NCBI GenBank assembly: GCA_010093705.1
Contig: MU006112.1
Coordinates: 1-64,000, forward strand
Origin: Patellaria atrata CBS 101060
Lineage: Eukaryota
Length of the DNA: 64,000 bases
Direction of reading: 5' to 3'
Part shown: piece by piece, positions 16,949 to 55,403 of the stretch
Position numbering within the stretch: position 1 is the first letter of the stretch
How the letters are laid out: each line of letters opens with the position of its first letter
Notes under the pieces: model-generated
Seen by the model: only the letters and a program-made list of their open reading frames with translations
Database searches by the model: none
Told to the model about the DNA's origin: nothing
Program-made: the position numbers and the translations under genes

Positions 16949-17140
16949 GAAAACTGAACTTCCACCACCTTATTCGAAATTTCATATCGCACACGAATCT
17001 TCGAGATTTTTCATTGTGGTCTTAGAAAAAGTATTAATTTATGCTCTTACTGACTGTTAAGCAAATGATCAAAAAAAATCACGCCCTTTTGAAGAAATCG
17101 GACAGCATTATTTTTTTTTTTGCCAAGTTTTGGGACATAT
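16949..17140. repeat. Solo copy of the dispersed ~150-200 bp non-coding repeat family
   Basis: GAAAACTGAACTTCCACCA...TTTCATATCGCACACGAATCTTCG...AAGCAAATGATCAAAAAAAATCACGCCCTTTTGAAG...GCCAAGTTTTGGGACAT. Block order is the same as in the copies at 52695-53312. Confidence 0.85.
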
Positions 17141-46403: not shown

Positions 46404-49400
46404 ATGAAGCAACGATTCTCTTCCCTAGATGTTAAAGTATGCGCCTTACCACACCCCGGAAGCCATGGAAGCTAACAGTATAGGTCATCGCTCATGAACT
46501 ATCAAAACGCCTTGTCAGCCTTCGAGTGTCCAATATATACGACCTCTCCACCGTAAGGTATCCGGCTCCCAACTGATCTATCAGTACTAAGAATCTATAC
46601 ATAGCGCATATTTCTGTTAAAATTCCAAAAACCTGACCACCGGGAACAATTAGTGGTCGACTCCGGCTTTCGATGCCACCTTACAAGCTTCGCAAGGGAG
46701 ACCGCCGCAGCGCCCTCTCCATTCGTTGCGAGGCTACGAAAGTTTCTACGGACTAGACGAGTCACTGCAGTCTCTCAAGTCGGAACGGATCGAATACTTG
46801 ACTTCCAGTTCTCGGATGGACAGTACCGGCTGTTCCTCGAATTCTATGCAGGAGGTAATATTATACTTACCGATGGGGAACTGAAAATTCTTGCATTACT
46901 TCGGAACGTTGATGAAGGCGAAGAGCATGAAAAGTTACGAATTGGGTTAAAATATAATCTATCCTTACGGCAAAACTATGGAGGAATCTCACCATTAACG
47001 AAGGAGAGGCTAAAAGAAGGGTTACAAAAGTCGATCGAAAAGCAAAGTGATGGGACAGCAAAGAAAATCAAGAGCAAACCAGGCGATGTTCTTAGGAGGG
47101 CCCTCGCTGTGTCCATTACTGAATATCCGCCTATGTTGGTTGATCACGCCCTGCGAGTTAAGGAATTTGATAGGAGCACCACTTTAGAACAGGTTGTTGA
47201 AGACGAATCGTTACAGGATAAGCTCTTAGAAGTTTTAGAAGAAGCAAAACGCGTAATTACGGATATTACTAGCGCTGAAACTACAAAGGGTTACATCATT
47301 GCGAAGCATATCACCCCTGAAGGGAGCGCGTCCGATAATTCAGTCACATCAAATAAGAACTTGAAATACGATGACTTCCACCCCTTTCGTCCCCGTCAAT
47401 TTGAGGATGATCCGGCCAAGACGTTCTTAGAGTTTGATGGCTTCAATAAGACCGTCGACGAATTCTTCTCATCCATAGAGGGTCAGAAATTGGAGAGTCG
47501 CCTTCAGGAGCGGGAAGAAAATGCAAGAAAAAGAATTGCGAAGGCACGGCTAGATCATGAGAGACGAGTCGGTGTGCTTCAACAGGAGCAGGAGCTCAAT
47601 ATCCGCAAAGCTCAAGCGATTACTGCAAACCTTGATCGGGTAGAGGAGGCCAAAGCTGCTATAAATGGGTTGATCGCCAAGGGAATGGACTGGGTAGAGG
47701 TGGATCATCTGATAGAAAGAGAGCAAAAACAGGGCAATCCGGTCGCTGAAATAATAAAGTTACCCCTCAAACTCTACGAGAACACTGCTACGTTTCTACT
47801 TGCTGAGAAAGGGTCCCAGGATGAGCTAGACTTCGAGGGCGAAGAGACTGACAGTGAACCTTCGGATAGTGAGGAGGAAGAGCACGAAAAAAAGTCGAAG
47901 GGAAACACTAGTAAAGCTCACGATAAGCGACTCACTGTAGACATTGATCTTGCGCTTTCAGTTTGGGCGAATGCGAGTCAGTATTACGATCAGAAGAAAT
48001 TCGCCGCCGTTAAAGAGGAGAGAACCATCGCCGCTTCTACAAAAGCATTGAAAAGCACTGAAAAGAAGATTGAGGCAGATCTGAAGAAAGGATTGAATAA
48101 AGAGAAAGACGTTTTGCGACCTGTACGGAAGACCTACTGGTTTGAAAAGTACGTATACTTCATATCATCAGATGGATACTTAGTCCTTGGTGGCAAAGAC
48201 GCACAACAAAACGAGATTCTTTACAAACGATACCTCCGGAAGGGTGATGTGTATGTCCACGCAGATCTACATGGAGCTGCGTCTGTCATTATAAAGAACA
48301 GCCCGTCGACGCCAGATGCACCAGTACCACCCTCTACTCTGTCACAGGCAGGCAATCTTGCTGTGTCAACATCAAGTGCCTGGGATTCTAAGGCTGTAAT
48401 GTCCGCTTGGTGGGTCAATGCGGACCAAGTCTCCAAAACCGCGCCGACCGGCGAGTACTTATCCACTGGCGGATTCATGATCCGCGGGAAGAAGAATTTT
48501 CTTCCTCCAGCTCAACTGCTACTAGGTTTCGCAGTTATGTTCGAGATCAGCGAGGAAAGTAAAGTAAACCATGTAAAGCATCGGTTAGAAGATGCTGCAC
48601 CATTTTCGAACGATGATAAGATGGGAACAGGTACCTCATCAGCATTAGCAGCCAATACCGACGAAGATGATAAACCTTTAGATGACAGTGATAGTGACGA
48701 GGACTTTCCGGATGCTAAACTTGAATCAGCGTCCGAAGATGAGGATGAGGAACTCACAACAAACCCTCTAGAGGGTACTCGTGAGAATGACACACCTCAG
48801 AATCTGGGGAACGGCTCCGAGATTGAGCAGAATGCTAGCGTAGGCGAAGAGTCCACTGAATCTGAAGGAGAAAGTGAATACGGTCATCAAAATACTACCT
48901 CTGAACAGAAACCCAAAGCATCAACACGCCACTCAGCTCGCGAAAGACGACTCCTTCGCAAAGGTCCAAATCCCGCCACGGAGTCGCAACCCGATGTTTC
49001 ATCCGAAGCTCAAGATGACGCAGACAACGACTCCCAAGCGCCCACTTCAGCCCCAACCTCAACCCAAACTCCAAAACCGAAAACTGCCCCTCTCCCACGC
49101 GGCAAACGCGGTAAAGTAAAGAAGCTCACAACAAAATATGCCAACCAAGACGAGGAAGAACGCGAACTCGCGCTCCGCCTCCTAGGCTCCAAAGCCTCGA
49201 GAGAGCAACCCACCGATAATACCGACAACAAGAAAGCAAAAGAAGAGGAAGCCGCCGCACAGAAGCAGCGACGAAGGGAACAGCACCTCCGAGCCCAAGC
49301 CCTGGGAAAGGCCTCGGAGGAAGCCCGTCGTCGAGAGAACGAGGGCGAAACCGAGGGTGGCGACGCCCTCGTCGACGAAGAAGCCCTCCGTCTTGAACAA

Positions 49401-49808
49401 GTCGGTCTCGATGCTTTCGTCGGCCGTCCCCTGCCAGGCGATGAAATTATCGCCGCGATCCCTGTCTGCGCCCCGTGGGCGGCGTTGGCGAACTACAAGT
49501 TCAAAGCCAAACTGCAACCTGGCTCCGTCAAAAAGGGAAAAGCGGTCAAAGAGATCTTGTCGAGGTGGGATGTTGCGGCGAAGGAGCCGAAGAATGTGGA
49601 TCCGAAAGCTGAGGATGGGGAGAAGATGTGGCCGAGGGAGATTGAGTGTATCAAGGCGTGGAAGGAGGTCGAGGTTTATGGCGTCGTGCCGGTCAAGATG
49701 TGTAGGGTTATGATGGGAGATCCGAGGAAGGATGGGAAAGGGGGTCCCGGGGGGAGTAAGGGGAGCAGTAAAGCGAAGAGGGGAGGACGGGGGAGTAAGA
49801 GGAAATAG
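46404..49808 (+). CDS. RQC2: Ribosome quality control subunit Rqc2/Tae2 (NEMF)
   Basis: MKQRFSSLDVK|VIAHEL...RVSNIYDLST across two short introns, GTDRI, WFEKYVYFISSDGYLVLGGKDAQQNEILYKRY, VHADLHGA, VSKTAPTGEYL and a C-terminal PVCAPW...KLQPGSVKKGKA. Confidence 0.95.
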
Positions 49809-50011
49809 GGATGGTGGGGTAGTGGACAGTAGATTGGTGTAACGAGTGTAGACTAGATTCCATCAAGAGGAACTCTATAGAATGGAAAAAGCATTCATGT
49901 ACCATACTTATGAAGTGCTCCACAGACAAAATACATGTGATGATCCTGCTGCCGCAAGTTACGGTAGGGACAAGTTTCCGCACGTACGACGTTAGTATAT
50001 CTGAAAATAAG

Positions 50012-51171
50012 TCTTTCGAAAGAGCACGATTTTTTTTGTGGTCAGTTGCTTAAGGGTTACCAAATAAGAAAATCAATATAATTATCTAAAATCTCGCTTA
50101 AAAATGGCAAAGAATCATGTGCGATATGAATTTTGAGGTAAGATAGTGAAGTTCACCTGTTTCTCATCTGGTCTTCGGAGCACGCGAACGTTGTCGCCTC
50201 GCCCTGCCATTTTTTAAGATATAAACGCATGAAATTTTTTTTTGGTCATTCTAAATAGGATAAGAAACCGGTATGGTTATCTAAGATCACGTTAAAAAAA
50301 ATAATGAAGATTCATGTGCGATATGAGTTTTGGATGTGAAGTTCAGTTTCTCATCTGACCTTAAAGAAACATGGTAGGAATGAAGTCGATACACGGACCA
50401 CAGGCACGAGCAACATCCCAAATCTTAGCATATTCTGGCAGTGGATGAGCCTTCGAAAACTCAAGGAATTTTTTGATCATTAGTTTAACCATGAGTAGGG
50501 AAAGGAATCGATATAATCTAAGATCTCGCTCAAAAGTGGCGAAGATCCATGTGCAACATGACTTTTGAAGATAAAGTAGTGGAAGTTCAGTTTTCTTGTT
50601 TCTAAAGAGACCACACGGTATCCGTGTCAAGCAGACTTGCGCTGACCCGTAGATAATTAACCGTTCCGGGCACTCCTCTCGGGAGTACACCACGGGACGG
50701 GACTACCAGCACCATATCCGAGATCTTGGCATGGAAATACCAGCAGATATTCTTTGAACGACCGTGAATTTTTTTTGGTCATCTCCTTAACGGCTTCAAA
50801 TTTATTAAATTCTTATGCATATTTAGAATCGCCTCAAAAAATGTGATACATTCATGTATAAAATGAAGATTTTAGATATAATGATACAAGTTCAGTTTCC
50901 CCGAGAACGACTGCGCACAGGGCGGCTTAGACGGTAACCATGACGCGCGGGGATGCACCGGATGCCACCCGACCCGATGAACATCCGATCCATACCTTGG
51001 CACACAATGGAATCCCTTCGAAACGGTGATTTTTTTGGTCATCTCCCTAATAGCTAGGAATATAAAAAGTCTAAATAGTTCTCTATAATTCCCTCAAAAA
51101 ATCAGACCGATCCGTGTGCAGTATGGAATTTTTAGATTTTTTTTTAGATATAGTGGTGGAAGTTCAGCTTC
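50012..51171 (+). repeat. Tandem array of 5 diverged ~150-200 bp repeat units
   Basis: Blocks CTTCGAA..CGTGA-T(7-10)-GGTCA ... ATCTAAGATCTCGC..AAAA ... GATTCATGTGCGATATGA.TTTTG ... GAAGTTCAGTTTC recur. AAGTTCA falls at about 50149, 50339, 50583, 50888 and 51160. Confidence 0.88.
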
Positions 51172-51837
51172 TAACAAGACGAGACGGGTACCTTATTCTG
51201 GCTCGCGTGGCCGCCCTCATCTACGCGGCTCTATGTGCAGCTCTTCACAACTCAGACGGCGAGAGTTAACTAAATCTATGGGACGTCTGCGGAGCTAGAT
51301 TCTCTAATTCAGCGTGTGCGCTCGGTGTGAGAGCGCGCTTTGTGACCCTCCTTATTAATATCACTCCAAGCACTGTGCTAGCATTTTGTCACGATTATCA
51401 TCAGTCTTAAGTGCCACGATGGTCGAGATACCTGCAAATCTAAAAATCTCACCTCTACCCAGCTGTGAAACCATCCAACTCCCGAGAGCCGCCTGTAAAG
51501 AACCGAAAAGGAGAATATCCAAAGTCTCCCCGAGCTTCTTTGAAAGGAGACCCTATTCCTAACTGCACTAGCACGGGTTCCAACTCATTTACTATACTTC
51601 CTCTCATAGCCCGCGAATACCGTACTGGCCCGGATGGAGACCTTTTAGTTCCGACCCCATGCAGCCATGAAACCATCGAAGTTCTCGTGACAACCCTTAA
51701 TATAAGGAAAGTCACAGAAGTCCTCAAGAAGGTTTGTCCACAGTTGGGCGGACGCCGTTGGGAAGTCCCCGTTGTATCCAATCGAGCGTGGCTGATCACT
51801 CCATCGACCTGCACCTGGTTATCGATATGTAACCTAT

Positions 51838-52553
51838 TCACCCCTTAGTAGCCGTTGGCCGACACTTCTTCTGCCCATCCTTCTCCACGGTCCCAATAGT
51901 CCTAGCTTGCTCATCGCAATACTTCGCCATGAAGGTGTCTTTTTCCGAGAGACCGTGTGGGTTGTGTGTCGTCCAGTGTATATGCACGGAACCCGATTTC
52001 TGCATTAAAAGTCAGTTTCGATAGAGGAAAGATAGGACGTGGGCCCAGGGGTGCGGGGTTGCGGGATGAATAAGGTGATGCAGAAAGGAGGTACGGAGAC
52101 CAATATTACGTACGAGTAACATCTCGGAATGATGATTCTTAGCTTTACTCCTTATACCAATAGTTTGCGCAAAATCCTATCTCCTTATCAATATTCCATG
52201 CTTACACGACATTGTACTATACAAGTACACGCTTCTGAATAGAGATAGCATACCAAAACTTTAGTATAGGTCTTGAAATAGTATGTCTTCTCAATCCCTA
52301 TCCGGTCGTCTGAGAGCTTCCACTCTGCGTCTAGTAATGCCGATACTTCTTCAGCCATGGCGCTTTTGTCCGCTCCAGAGCTGAACTGAGGATTAGTGCT
52401 CGCCATTCTCGCGGAAAAGTAGGAGACCCGACTGGTAGGTGATTGTATACGGCGGATGGTAGGTAATTGTAAAGGTATACGGTGGATGATAGGTATCTGT
52501 ATACGGTGGAAGGGGGTGAAGAGGACGGTTGGAGGTGATTGCGGGATAGGCAT
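51838..52553 (-). CDS. Pterin-4-alpha-carbinolamine dehydratase (PCBD/PhhB family)
   Basis: The spliced product contains WKLSDDRIGIEKTYYFKTYTKVL|DFAQTIGIRSKAKNHHSEMLL|KSGSVHIHWTTHNPHGLSEKDTFMAKYCDEQA, with the NHH and WTTH..GLS..D motifs. The start could be 52553 or 52406. Confidence 0.88.
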
Positions 52554-52694
52554 GGAGGGTTGCTGGGACGGGGATGTTCAATGAGGGTTCGAAGATCGTG
52601 TTGAAGCGTTGAAGTCGGCTCATAGTTAATGATTCCCATTTCAGGTTAGTCACTAATCTGATCTAAGTTGAGCACATGCTCTTTTCCTCTGACA

Positions 52695-53312
52695 GAAACT
52701 GAACTTCCATCATCTAATCCAAAAATTCATACCGCACACCAATCTTCAAGATTTTCTATGAGCATTTATAGTTCACTAGTTAAGTTTATTCTATTCCTAG
52801 CCATTGAGTAGATAACCTAAAAGAATCATGTCCTTTCGAAGGTTTTCTTGCACGCCAAAATTTTGGACATCCATCCAGCTCGTGCTGGTGCACATTCCCT
52901 CGCGCGTTCTGAAACTGAACTTCTCTTACCATATTATTCCAAAAGTTAAAATCGAACACCAATCGTCAACATTCTTTATAAGCATCATAGATAACTAAAT
53001 AGAACGATCCTATCTCCAACCGTTGCGCAAATAACCCAAAAAAAAATCACGTCCTTTCGAAGCTGTTTTATATATGCCAAGATTTTGGATATCCGTCGGG
53101 CAGCTCCCCATCAACGCGCCTCCGCTGTCAGAAAACTGAACTTCCATCACCAAATCTCAAAATTTTCATATAGCACGTCAATCGTCGAGATTTTTCGTAA
53201 GGATCATAGATAACAATATAAAAAAATCCAATTCCCAACCATTAAGCAAATGGCCCCAAAAAAATCTCGTCCTTTTTAAACAAGTAAGGATTTTGGCCAA
53301 GATTTCAGATAT
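52695..53312 (-). repeat. Tandem array of 3 repeat units in inverted orientation relative to 50012-51171
   Basis: GAAACTGAACTTC starts at 52695, 52911 and 53131 (period about 216-220). Each is followed by CGCACACCAATCTTC-like, AAAAAAATCACGTCCTTTCGAAG-like and GCCAAGATTTTGGA-like blocks. Confidence 0.88.
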
Positions 53313-53447
53313 GGGTCACTCTGGTGATAGTAAGGTACGTCAGGTGTAATGCCCTTATCATAACCTCGAAAAAGATCATTATCATTAGTAGTGTATATGA
53401 GAGATTTACAGTATATTCCAGACGAAACGATGAGTTATGCCGGCCAT

Positions 53448-55403
53448 CTACACACCCAGAACGTAGACCACAACCACCGCCACAGCGCTCCATCCTTCCC
53501 TCACCCCTAGCTTGACCGCTGCACCAGATGTTGTAGCAGCTGCACCATCGCCCGTGCTCGTTGCGCTTTCTTCCATCTCTGTAGTTGTCGTAGGCTCTAC
53601 AGTTGAAGTAGCAACACTACTCGAGGTGGACGTGCGGCTTGATCTAGAGCTAGAGCTAGAGCTAGAGCTAGAGCTAGATGTGCTCTCCTCAACGTCATCC
53701 GGTCCATCGAAAAGCTCTTCCCCATCGCTCACTCTGGTCCACGCAAGCTCATCGCCGTCACCATTGACAGCTTTTGCCCGTATGTAATCCTCGAGGTCTA
53801 GTTCCTCAAGATCGATTGTGGTCTCGAAACCGGTCCGCCTTGCGGTCGTTACGTTCATCCACGTCGTGGCGTTAGAACTATCTGCAGTATACAGTACCCA
53901 TTCTTCAACGTCTGTGGCGCCGTTCCAGGAGAAATATGCCTTATTTCCATCCTTATTCCAGTGAATATCTGGGAGGGTGAGTGGGAGACCTTGCCACGGC
54001 AGCTTGTATGTGCGGTAGGAGTTTATAACGTTGCCGGTTGCGTATTGGACATCAAGGAGTATGTTTCCTTCAGAGTCACATTCCGTGAAGAATGGTTCAC
54101 TCCCATAGCCGACAATGAAGTTGGTATTTTCGTCACTTGGATCTACAGCTTGCAGACTTCCCTCGTATTGCCCGAATGTTTTCGCAGCGTTGGTGAAGTC
54201 GGTGATGAGACGGACGGTGCGCGCGTCTTGGTCCACATCAAGGAGCAGGCCTCGGGAATAGTCAACACCTTCAGTAGGACCGTTGTCAAAGAGTGTCATG
54301 CGGGTTTGCTCATCATTCAACCAGCGGGCATCGTGTTGAAAGGCGAATACAGCGGCATCTTCGACATCAAAATCTGATCTTCTACCGTTGAGACGCCAAA
54401 GAATCGTCCCGTCCGGACCGGAGATCTTGAAGATACAGCTCATTACACGTGCGGACACAAGATAGTCGCCATTTTGATCCTTTGCAATAGAATTGATGTG
54501 AAAGTAGTCAAATGGAGCTTCTTCCGAACCGCCGGAACCGGAGAGAGTATTATATGTTTCATTAATTAGGACGTGGTTTGTAGCATTCCATTCGAAGATG
54601 AGTTCCTAGATGATTTAGCCTATCCGTTGATACTATGTTGGTCATTTTCTCTCGTGTAACATACCCCTGTTGCAATATCAACCTCCTGGAACATGCTGTC
54701 CAATACCCAACCATCGGAAGGACCACCGACACTCGATAGATCGTATTGCTTCGGAATGTAAAGTGGAAAGAGAGCGGTATCATCCTGTGTAATCGTAAAT
54801 TCATGAAAGTCGGCTAGGCCAGGAAACCGGGGAGCGGAGACACGTGCTATTTCAACGTAAGACTGATTTAGTATCAGGAACGATCCGTGTCCATAACCTG
54901 GTGAACTTTTAGCTTCCTCTCGTGGACCTTGATTAATATAACTCACCAGAGATGAAATCCCCTTGCCAAAATGTTATGACCGGCTCCCCTTGATATGTCT
55001 GGGCTCTGAAATCGAATGTCTCGGTGTAGTCCGCCGTCCAAACAAGGCTGCCCATTCGTTCCGGCGACATATCTACGGATGGTAAGAAACATCAGGTCGT
55101 GGAAGGTATTTCTTTGATCAGTTGAGTAGACTAACCTACAATGACTGGAAAGTTTTGTTGTGAGGACGGTTGTCCATCTATGCCGAGGAAGTATAAGCCA
55201 TCCGCGAGGCCGGACTGGTTTGAGTTGATCTGAAATATAGGAGGTTTCGCCTGGGTATTTGACTTGTAAGTTTGAAATGGAGTTCCTACTGAATCTGCGC
55301 TGCTATAGCTATCATAGTCGGTTGAAACCGTATCTTGAGCTCCTGCGATGTTCAACGAAAGGTGTAGGCTAGCTACCAGCAGCCATAACGACGGTAATCG
55401 CAT
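53448..55403 (-). CDS. Secreted, probably GPI-anchored arylsulfotransferase (ASST family)
   Basis: Signal peptide MRLPSLWLLVASLHLSLNIAGA. Motifs DFHEF, FDYFHINSIAKD, AFQHDARW, LFDNG, SYRTYKLPW, SWNGAT and RTGFET. Ser/Thr-rich stalk and hydrophobic C-terminus. Three introns. Confidence 0.88.
53643..53678. repeat. (CTAGAG)n hexanucleotide microsatellite encoding poly-Ser in the ASST stalk
   Basis: tctagagctagagctagagctagagctagagctaga. Confidence 0.9.

Follow-up and report, generated by a model that had tools for sequence, protein, structure and literature searches.

A dispersed, old satellite-like repeat family with a constrained core in a dothideomycete genome: a candidate module read by a protein on double-stranded DNA

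Two short arrays of a non-coding repeat face each other across a PCBD-like gene (pterin-4a-carbinolamine dehydratase) in a stretch of 64,000 nucleotides, hereafter the window, which is part of contig C24 of a 28.7-Mb dothideomycete assembly. Do these arrays belong to the gene that they enclose, or to a larger family with a history of its own? The gene, at 51838..52406 on the minus strand, contains introns and was recognised with Pfam PF01329 (E 1.6e-6 for the last exon and 0.052 for the first). To its left lies the main exon of RQC2/NEMF (46653..49808, plus strand) and to its right the last exon of an arylsulfotransferase (ASST) gene (53448..54458, minus strand), both identified by Pfam and both with the 3' end towards the tail of the adjacent array.

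Read in the orientation of the 52.7-kb copies, a unit consists of block A (GAAACTGAACTT), a spacer, block B (CATATCGCACA and the next 15 bp), the GAT-rich block C, block D (GACC and an A-tract) and a linker, which holds block E (TGCCAAGAT onward) and block F (ACGCGAC, a decayed dyad); a pyrimidine-rich stretch then leads to the next head. Blocks A to D form a core of ~145 bp. The preliminary description held that block spacing is kept throughout. This is true of the central core, where columns 36-80 measure 45 bp in 100/121 copies and columns 80-122 measure 41-43 bp in 113/123, but not of the A-B spacer, which has two modes at 14 and 25 bp (11 bp apart, with 20-21 bp in no copy), nor of the D-E spacer, which ranges from 8 to 58 bp. 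Both classes of A-B spacer occur within one array in 7/25 cases, and the short one follows subfamily lines to some extent, with 16 changes on the tree and 33 when shuffled.

The linkers, of 66-330 bp (57 measured), are indeed richer in GC than the core (49% and 34%, respectively), but they are not unique DNA as had been thought: since they retain differing pieces of blocks E and F, they are deletion-eroded remnants of one ancestral sequence. Moreover, block E occurs upstream of the outermost head in 20/74 arrays (3 in shuffles, 9 on the opposite strand) and downstream of the tail in 32/72, which suggests a partial terminal redundancy; block F follows the tail in 3/72 arrays, at chance level. 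Truncated units are present in the family, and the array flanks show no sharp end common to the copies. A reading of the bases before the head as a 3' splice site was dropped because the flank is too variable. Several linkers at C3:327470-329050 and C7:194560-194630 carry a GTTGCC-N-GGCAAC dyad beside block F. We take this dyad, or part of block F, to resemble an RFX box; presumably block E likewise resembles a PacC site and block C GATA-type sites.

Alignment and nhmmer hits place eight units in the window, where they had been reported. The left array comprises five units, all on the minus strand: the outermost at 49990..50164, with a 3-bp insertion in block A and a decayed block E; the second at 50212..50351, with a short A-B spacer, an internal deletion before block D and no block E; the third at 50414..50595; the fourth at 50715..50900, with a block E match at 50713-50731; and the innermost at 50988..51172, whose head is directed towards the central 1.5 kb. 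Three units on the plus strand form the right array, at 52694..52869 (its head ~290 bp upstream of the presumed PCBD start codon), 52911..53091 (block E match at 53075-53093) and 53131..53311 (block E match at 53295-53313). Two opposed groups of five and three units had thus been seen correctly, but on exchanged strands: the motifs as quoted put the 52.7-kb copies on the plus strand and the 50-kb copies on the minus strand.

The eight units align over ~180 bp with E values of 6e-24 to 3e-40, under a model trained on these same eight units. A ninth copy, outside the training set, lies at 16949..17137 on the plus strand (nhmmer E 5e-33); it is a monomer near the family consensus, with a linker remnant (block F) just upstream. 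The repeat region is spanned without differences by one contig from one sequencing sample, which is probably the source of this DNA and thus not independent; to that extent there is no sign of misassembly. Tandem Repeats Finder did not detect the window arrays.

The family extends far beyond the PCBD locus, to which it had first been tied: the search of this genome yielded 138 copies, grouped in 75 arrays of one to six units, and the total is probably about 150 copies at ~80 arrays, as block-C pattern matches fell on known loci in 36/39 cases (compared by eye). A BLAST search with the two window arrays matched many contigs; apart from the arrays themselves, the best matches were 77-78% identical over ~130-145 bp. 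Genome-wide, the block patterns gave 114, 123, 85, 55 and 39 matches against 12, 9, 2, 4 and 2, respectively, for the reversed-pattern controls. The nucleotide HMM proposed earlier as a check on copy number was run iteratively on 646,508 bases around matches. It returned 133 copies, which fall into 70 arrays (41 of them monomers, 29 with 2-6 units), and no hit on reversed sequence. The first three pattern counts and this blank together exclude chance. Five of 15 weaker candidate sites also carried a copy and were added to the 133.

The copy count is based on BLAST, patterns and the HMM on stretches around hits, and the 138 leave aside 15 more candidate sites and one contig end (16 stretches in all). 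Pattern matches alone point to three further probable loci, at C7:384500, C18:266336-266455 and C24:201583-201644. The distribution is patchy, and C6 (1.5 Mb), C10, C12, C15 and C17 gave no match in two fully listed core searches. Outside this genome, one strict pattern had five hits in metagenomes, none extending past the pattern, viral contigs had no hit to the repeat, and three exact 21-mer hits in prokaryote genomes were taken as chance; these blanks carry little weight, as the RQC2 of the window, whose residues 1-640 are identical to those of an NCBI protein labelled Patellaria atrata, has its next relatives at <=75% identity. We found no description of the family in the literature, where supplements of genome papers could list it as an unclassified repeat.

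Judged by their divergence, all copies are old. Identity to the consensus is 65-84% (median 75%, 128 copies), and the closest of 7946 pairs are 83% identical. Pairs from the same array average 69% identity and distant pairs 64%; the tree is star-like, with 81-84% of its length in terminal and 16-19% in internal branches, and the subfamily structure is weak and tied to the short spacer. Twelve pairs of arrays lie within 10 kb of each other, six with heads inward, three with tails inward and three in the same direction, hence in opposite orientation in 9/12 cases. Head-to-head unit pairs 54 and 103 bp apart exist as well. An inverted triplet (minus, plus, minus) at C1:2095561-2096156 contains a head-to-head and a tail-to-tail joint within 600 bp.

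The arrays that face each other across PCBD are an instance of such clustering. The preliminary description had suggested that they could mark a foldback-like unit that carried the enclosed gene, and heads do point inward here and at five other array pairs. We nevertheless consider this most improbable: the 15 left-right unit pairs are 55-71% identical (mean ~62%), no better than the background of 64 +/- 5%, and thus the arrays are not the arms of one foldback unit; the tail-inward and same-direction pairs, three of each, and the monomers, which make up 41/70 arrays, also speak against it. The PCBD-like gene is an ordinary neighbour, outside the repeat element.

None of 70 arrays overlaps a predicted coding segment. 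The 102 nearest coding segments are ordinary genes or lack a Pfam match, include no transposase recognisable by Pfam, and share no obvious common function. Between co-directional genes the head is turned towards the 5' end of the downstream gene in 24 cases and away from it in 10 (p 0.024), or in 21 and 10 at a stricter gene threshold (p 0.07), the gene calls for placement and orientation being those of a rough codon model. This placement and the weak orientation bias would fit a boundary or promoter-proximal role.

Are the conserved blocks then more than remnants of common descent? They had been proposed to be constrained modules, and the site rates bear this out. Columns need between 3 and 45 parsimony steps (dispersion 5.3), and uniform rates fall 179 log-likelihood units short of a gamma model; with a gamma alpha of 2.64, the heterogeneity is moderate. 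The 41 monomers and 63 non-best array copies give concordant site profiles (rho 0.83), which makes search bias an unlikely cause; the profile of within-array pairs likewise agrees with that of the monomers (rho 0.78). In 38 disjoint pairs of array neighbours, sites that are slow in monomers differ in 173/998 comparisons (17%) and fast sites in 292/626 (47%). This contrast holds for each of the four bases, and the same trinucleotide contexts differ several-fold (e.g., TCT, 0.13 vs 0.51).

According to the alignment column table, the similarity is not limited to the A/T tracts. Columns beyond the two locus-finding patterns are kept as well (G70 in 90% and A78 in 97% of non-best copies), and of ~130 copies, 114 and 113, respectively, retain the two CpA steps of block B. 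Only four columns exchange G and C while avoiding A/T; three of them (47, 57 and 67) lie 10 bp apart, with no linkage between them. A 10.5-bp period of conservation reaches p 0.02-0.03 by column permutation and ~0.2 by block permutation. The power of WW dinucleotides peaks at 13.5 bp, not 10, which speaks against the nucleosome-length positioning element considered earlier.

Array neighbours thus differ far less at slow sites (17%) than at fast ones (47%), which makes it probable that the constraint persisted after the arrays had formed. This would hold only if array neighbours are local duplicates, an origin to which their modest excess identity lends weak support. Their identity barely exceeds that of unrelated copies (69% vs 64%), and they may thus be something other than simple local duplicates; in that case source-copy diversity together with recombination could yield the same profile.

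Taken together, the repeat is best filed with dispersed satellite-like repeats that carry conserved boxes, and it is real and larger than first noted. The reading that we prefer, to which we give a probability of about one half, is that of a satellite-like element that once spread and whose core a protein recognises as double-stranded DNA. It builds on results given above: how many copies there are, where they lie, how old they are, how site rates vary along the unit, how fixed the core length is and where the linkers come from. An ancestral, lineage-restricted unit of ~250-300 bp would have dispersed to ~80 intergenic sites, perhaps by circle reinsertion or template switching, which is a guess, and would then have multiplied locally into short head-to-tail, sometimes inverted, arrays before spreading ended long ago. 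The core (blocks A-D) would be a multi-site recognition module for a protein or complex that is specific for sequence and spacing on double-stranded DNA. We propose that this reading by a protein continued after the arrays had formed, so that the core held on to its key bases and its length as deletions wore away the linker (blocks E-F). The slow sites would then reflect protein contact, the putative reader being a host chromatin or transcription factor, and the likely role would be that of a weak boundary or promoter-proximal element.

Satellite comparisons fit this placement in part. Head-to-tail tandem units are found in 29/70 arrays, with 2-6 units each; long homogenised arrays are absent from the assembly, where the maximum is six units and within-array identity is 69%. 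As described in the excerpts of PMC5139131, the bivalve BIV160/Cg170 satellite DNA has units of 150-250 bp that occur as monomers and short arrays outside the main clusters, with conserved segments and fragmented monomers in the flanks, all of which recall the present repeat; in contrast, ours has no long or homogenised array and no Helitron flanks, and resides in a gene-dense fungal genome.

The main rival sees in the repeat what neutral decay has left of an extinct non-autonomous mobile element, be it rolling-circle, tyrosine-recombinase or TRIM-like; its blocks would be cis sites of the mobiliser that were kept only among active source copies. We regard it as possible, though on balance doubtful. 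Such a relic would account for a family that is dispersed, single-lineage as far as tested and uniformly old (65-84% to the consensus), with a subfamily signal, truncated units, a partly redundant block E and local clustering in both tandem and inverted form (12 pairs of arrays within 10 kb, nine opposed), in a genome that carries one Helitron relic and three broken DUF3435 relics. However, no fixed ends and, in agreement with the preliminary description, no terminal inverted repeats were found at units or array flanks, where the inverted repeats seen join whole units. A target-site duplication appeared in 1/8 cases against 0.5 expected, a weak test as the ends are ill-defined, the 46 kb around the Helitron relic hold no copy, and the 102 nearest coding segments include no transposase. 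Although terminal branches make up 81-84% of the tree, slow sites remain slow, also between array neighbours.

Known element types agree with the repeat in some respects only. Helitron1 elements begin with 5'-TC and end in CTRR-3' with a hairpin 10-12 nt from the end (excerpts of PMC5148889), and by eye no common end of this kind was seen in the flanks of 41 arrays or in later flank displays. Helitron2/Helentron elements (HINE, DINE-1, FoHeli) are described in the excerpts of PMC4067079 and PMC5148889 as having asymmetric or subterminal inverted repeats with terminal hairpins and termini common to an autonomous Rep-Hel partner, and as inserting into T-rich sequence. Their non-autonomous forms share with our repeat a non-coding nature, the lack of a target-site duplication signal and the tandem insertions reported in those excerpts; unlike them, it has neither subterminal or asymmetric inverted repeats nor fixed ends, its only other inverted structure being the decayed dyad in block F, and it shows no similarity to the Helitron relic of this genome. 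That relic, the sole one found, is a broken Rep-helicase gene in several frames at C9:259300-263600 (PF14214, DUF6570, PIF1). With no common termini, and no hit of the core and start of block E in the 46 kb around the relic (block F lies outside the model), the earlier suggestion of Helitron/Helentron internal repeats finds no support.

In TRIM tandem arrays, as set out in the excerpts of PMC6934838, a short block can flank both ends and separate the units (TDR(x)-I(x-1)), as block E does here. The two differ in that the redundancy of our repeat is confined to block E, of ~40-60 bp, instead of terminal direct repeats of 100-250 bp on both ends, and in its ragged ends, its missing target-site duplication signal and its few solo copies; no primer-binding site or polypurine tract was seen by eye in the array flank displays. 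Non-autonomous Cryptons are likewise fungal, lack terminal inverted repeats and have boundaries that are hard to define (excerpts of PMC3212892), but our repeat has no defined terminal direct repeat of 4-6 bp and no recombinase gene beside any array tested. A search with PF00589 for a tyrosine-recombinase partner gave no match (DUF3504-type Cryptons lie outside that search), and the three DUF3435 relics (Starship/tyrosine-recombinase type; C37:14792, C5:767840 and C22:301240), with five or four internal stops each, are not at a known array. The terminal inverted repeats and target-site duplication of MITEs were not found at units or arrays, and a tRNA-derived SINE finds no support in the B-box, present near 1/70 arrays against 3.2 matches expected, nor in the one tRNA found by ARAGORN, which is not at an array.

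Two further readings give the unit a task of its own. The copies could serve as some of the sequence-defined replication origins of this genome, or the unit could be a selfish, origin-like module that drives its own local amplification, as suggested by their intergenic position, the asymmetric blocks, the AT-rich core (34% GC) with its A-tract, and the close head-to-head pairs and inverted triplet. The linker also holds CGCG-type words, which we take to resemble cell-cycle boxes. Yeast origins (S. cerevisiae A/B1/B2; the Y. lipolytica consensus) similarly have ordered asymmetric blocks in intergenic, AT-rich DNA, sometimes as inverted pairs, according to the excerpt of 10.64898/2026.03.10.710760; unlike these, our repeat lacks motif enrichment, is too rare and too patchy, and its copies have a common ancestry over ~250 bp. 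Of 133 copies, 0 and 4 match the Yarrowia ORC-Cdc6 consensus, where shuffles give ~11. The 11-bp consensus of budding yeast occurs in the copies about as often as expected by chance, and the loci number ~80 in 28.7 Mb, with large contigs devoid of detected copies. Either form of the origin reading thus seems very unlikely, and an origin of standard type, as once considered, finds no support.

Alternatively, each unit could encode a small RNA or start transcription, the linker acting as promoter. As in fungal core promoters, a pyrimidine-rich stretch and CGCG/CACGTG-like words come before the head, and heads tend to face 5' ends. However, RNAalifold gave no consensus base pair on either strand, single-copy folding is at chance (mean z -0.37 and -0.31, 31 copies), and Rfam returned three hits, the best with E 0.4 and all far below gathering scores. 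With the B-box below expectation and no tRNA gene beside an array, we hold this reading to be decidedly improbable.

If the constraint is real, ~150 independently diverged copies amount to a natural mutagenesis scan that points to the bases and spacings that matter, and the family would be an example of a repeat retained as a cis-element of the chromosome in a compact fungal genome. If it is instead a mobile relic, we are left with an unclassified old fungal repeat of modest interest. A bolder form of the protein-read satellite, which we offer tentatively and rate as unlikely, would have a once-selfish ~145-bp module that spread without an enzyme of its own, has a dedicated sequence- and helix-phase-specific protein complex as candidate reader, and now marks ~80 sites in oriented arrays as boundaries or loading sites. 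Were this true, it would be a satellite-derived cis-element system in filamentous fungi, where our searches turned up no such dispersed, constrained arrays.

Some minor features lie close to the arrays in the window. Between the head of the left array and the 3' end of PCBD there is a 47-codon ORF with a Kozak-like start (51419-51562, plus strand; no Pfam match); if it is real, both arrays would point at a 5' end. Just upstream of PCBD, a degenerate short direct repeat (27 nt, 54 apart) occupies 52433-52513, and a (CTAGAG)x5.8 microsatellite at 53644-53678 corresponds to a serine run in the C-terminal tail of ASST.
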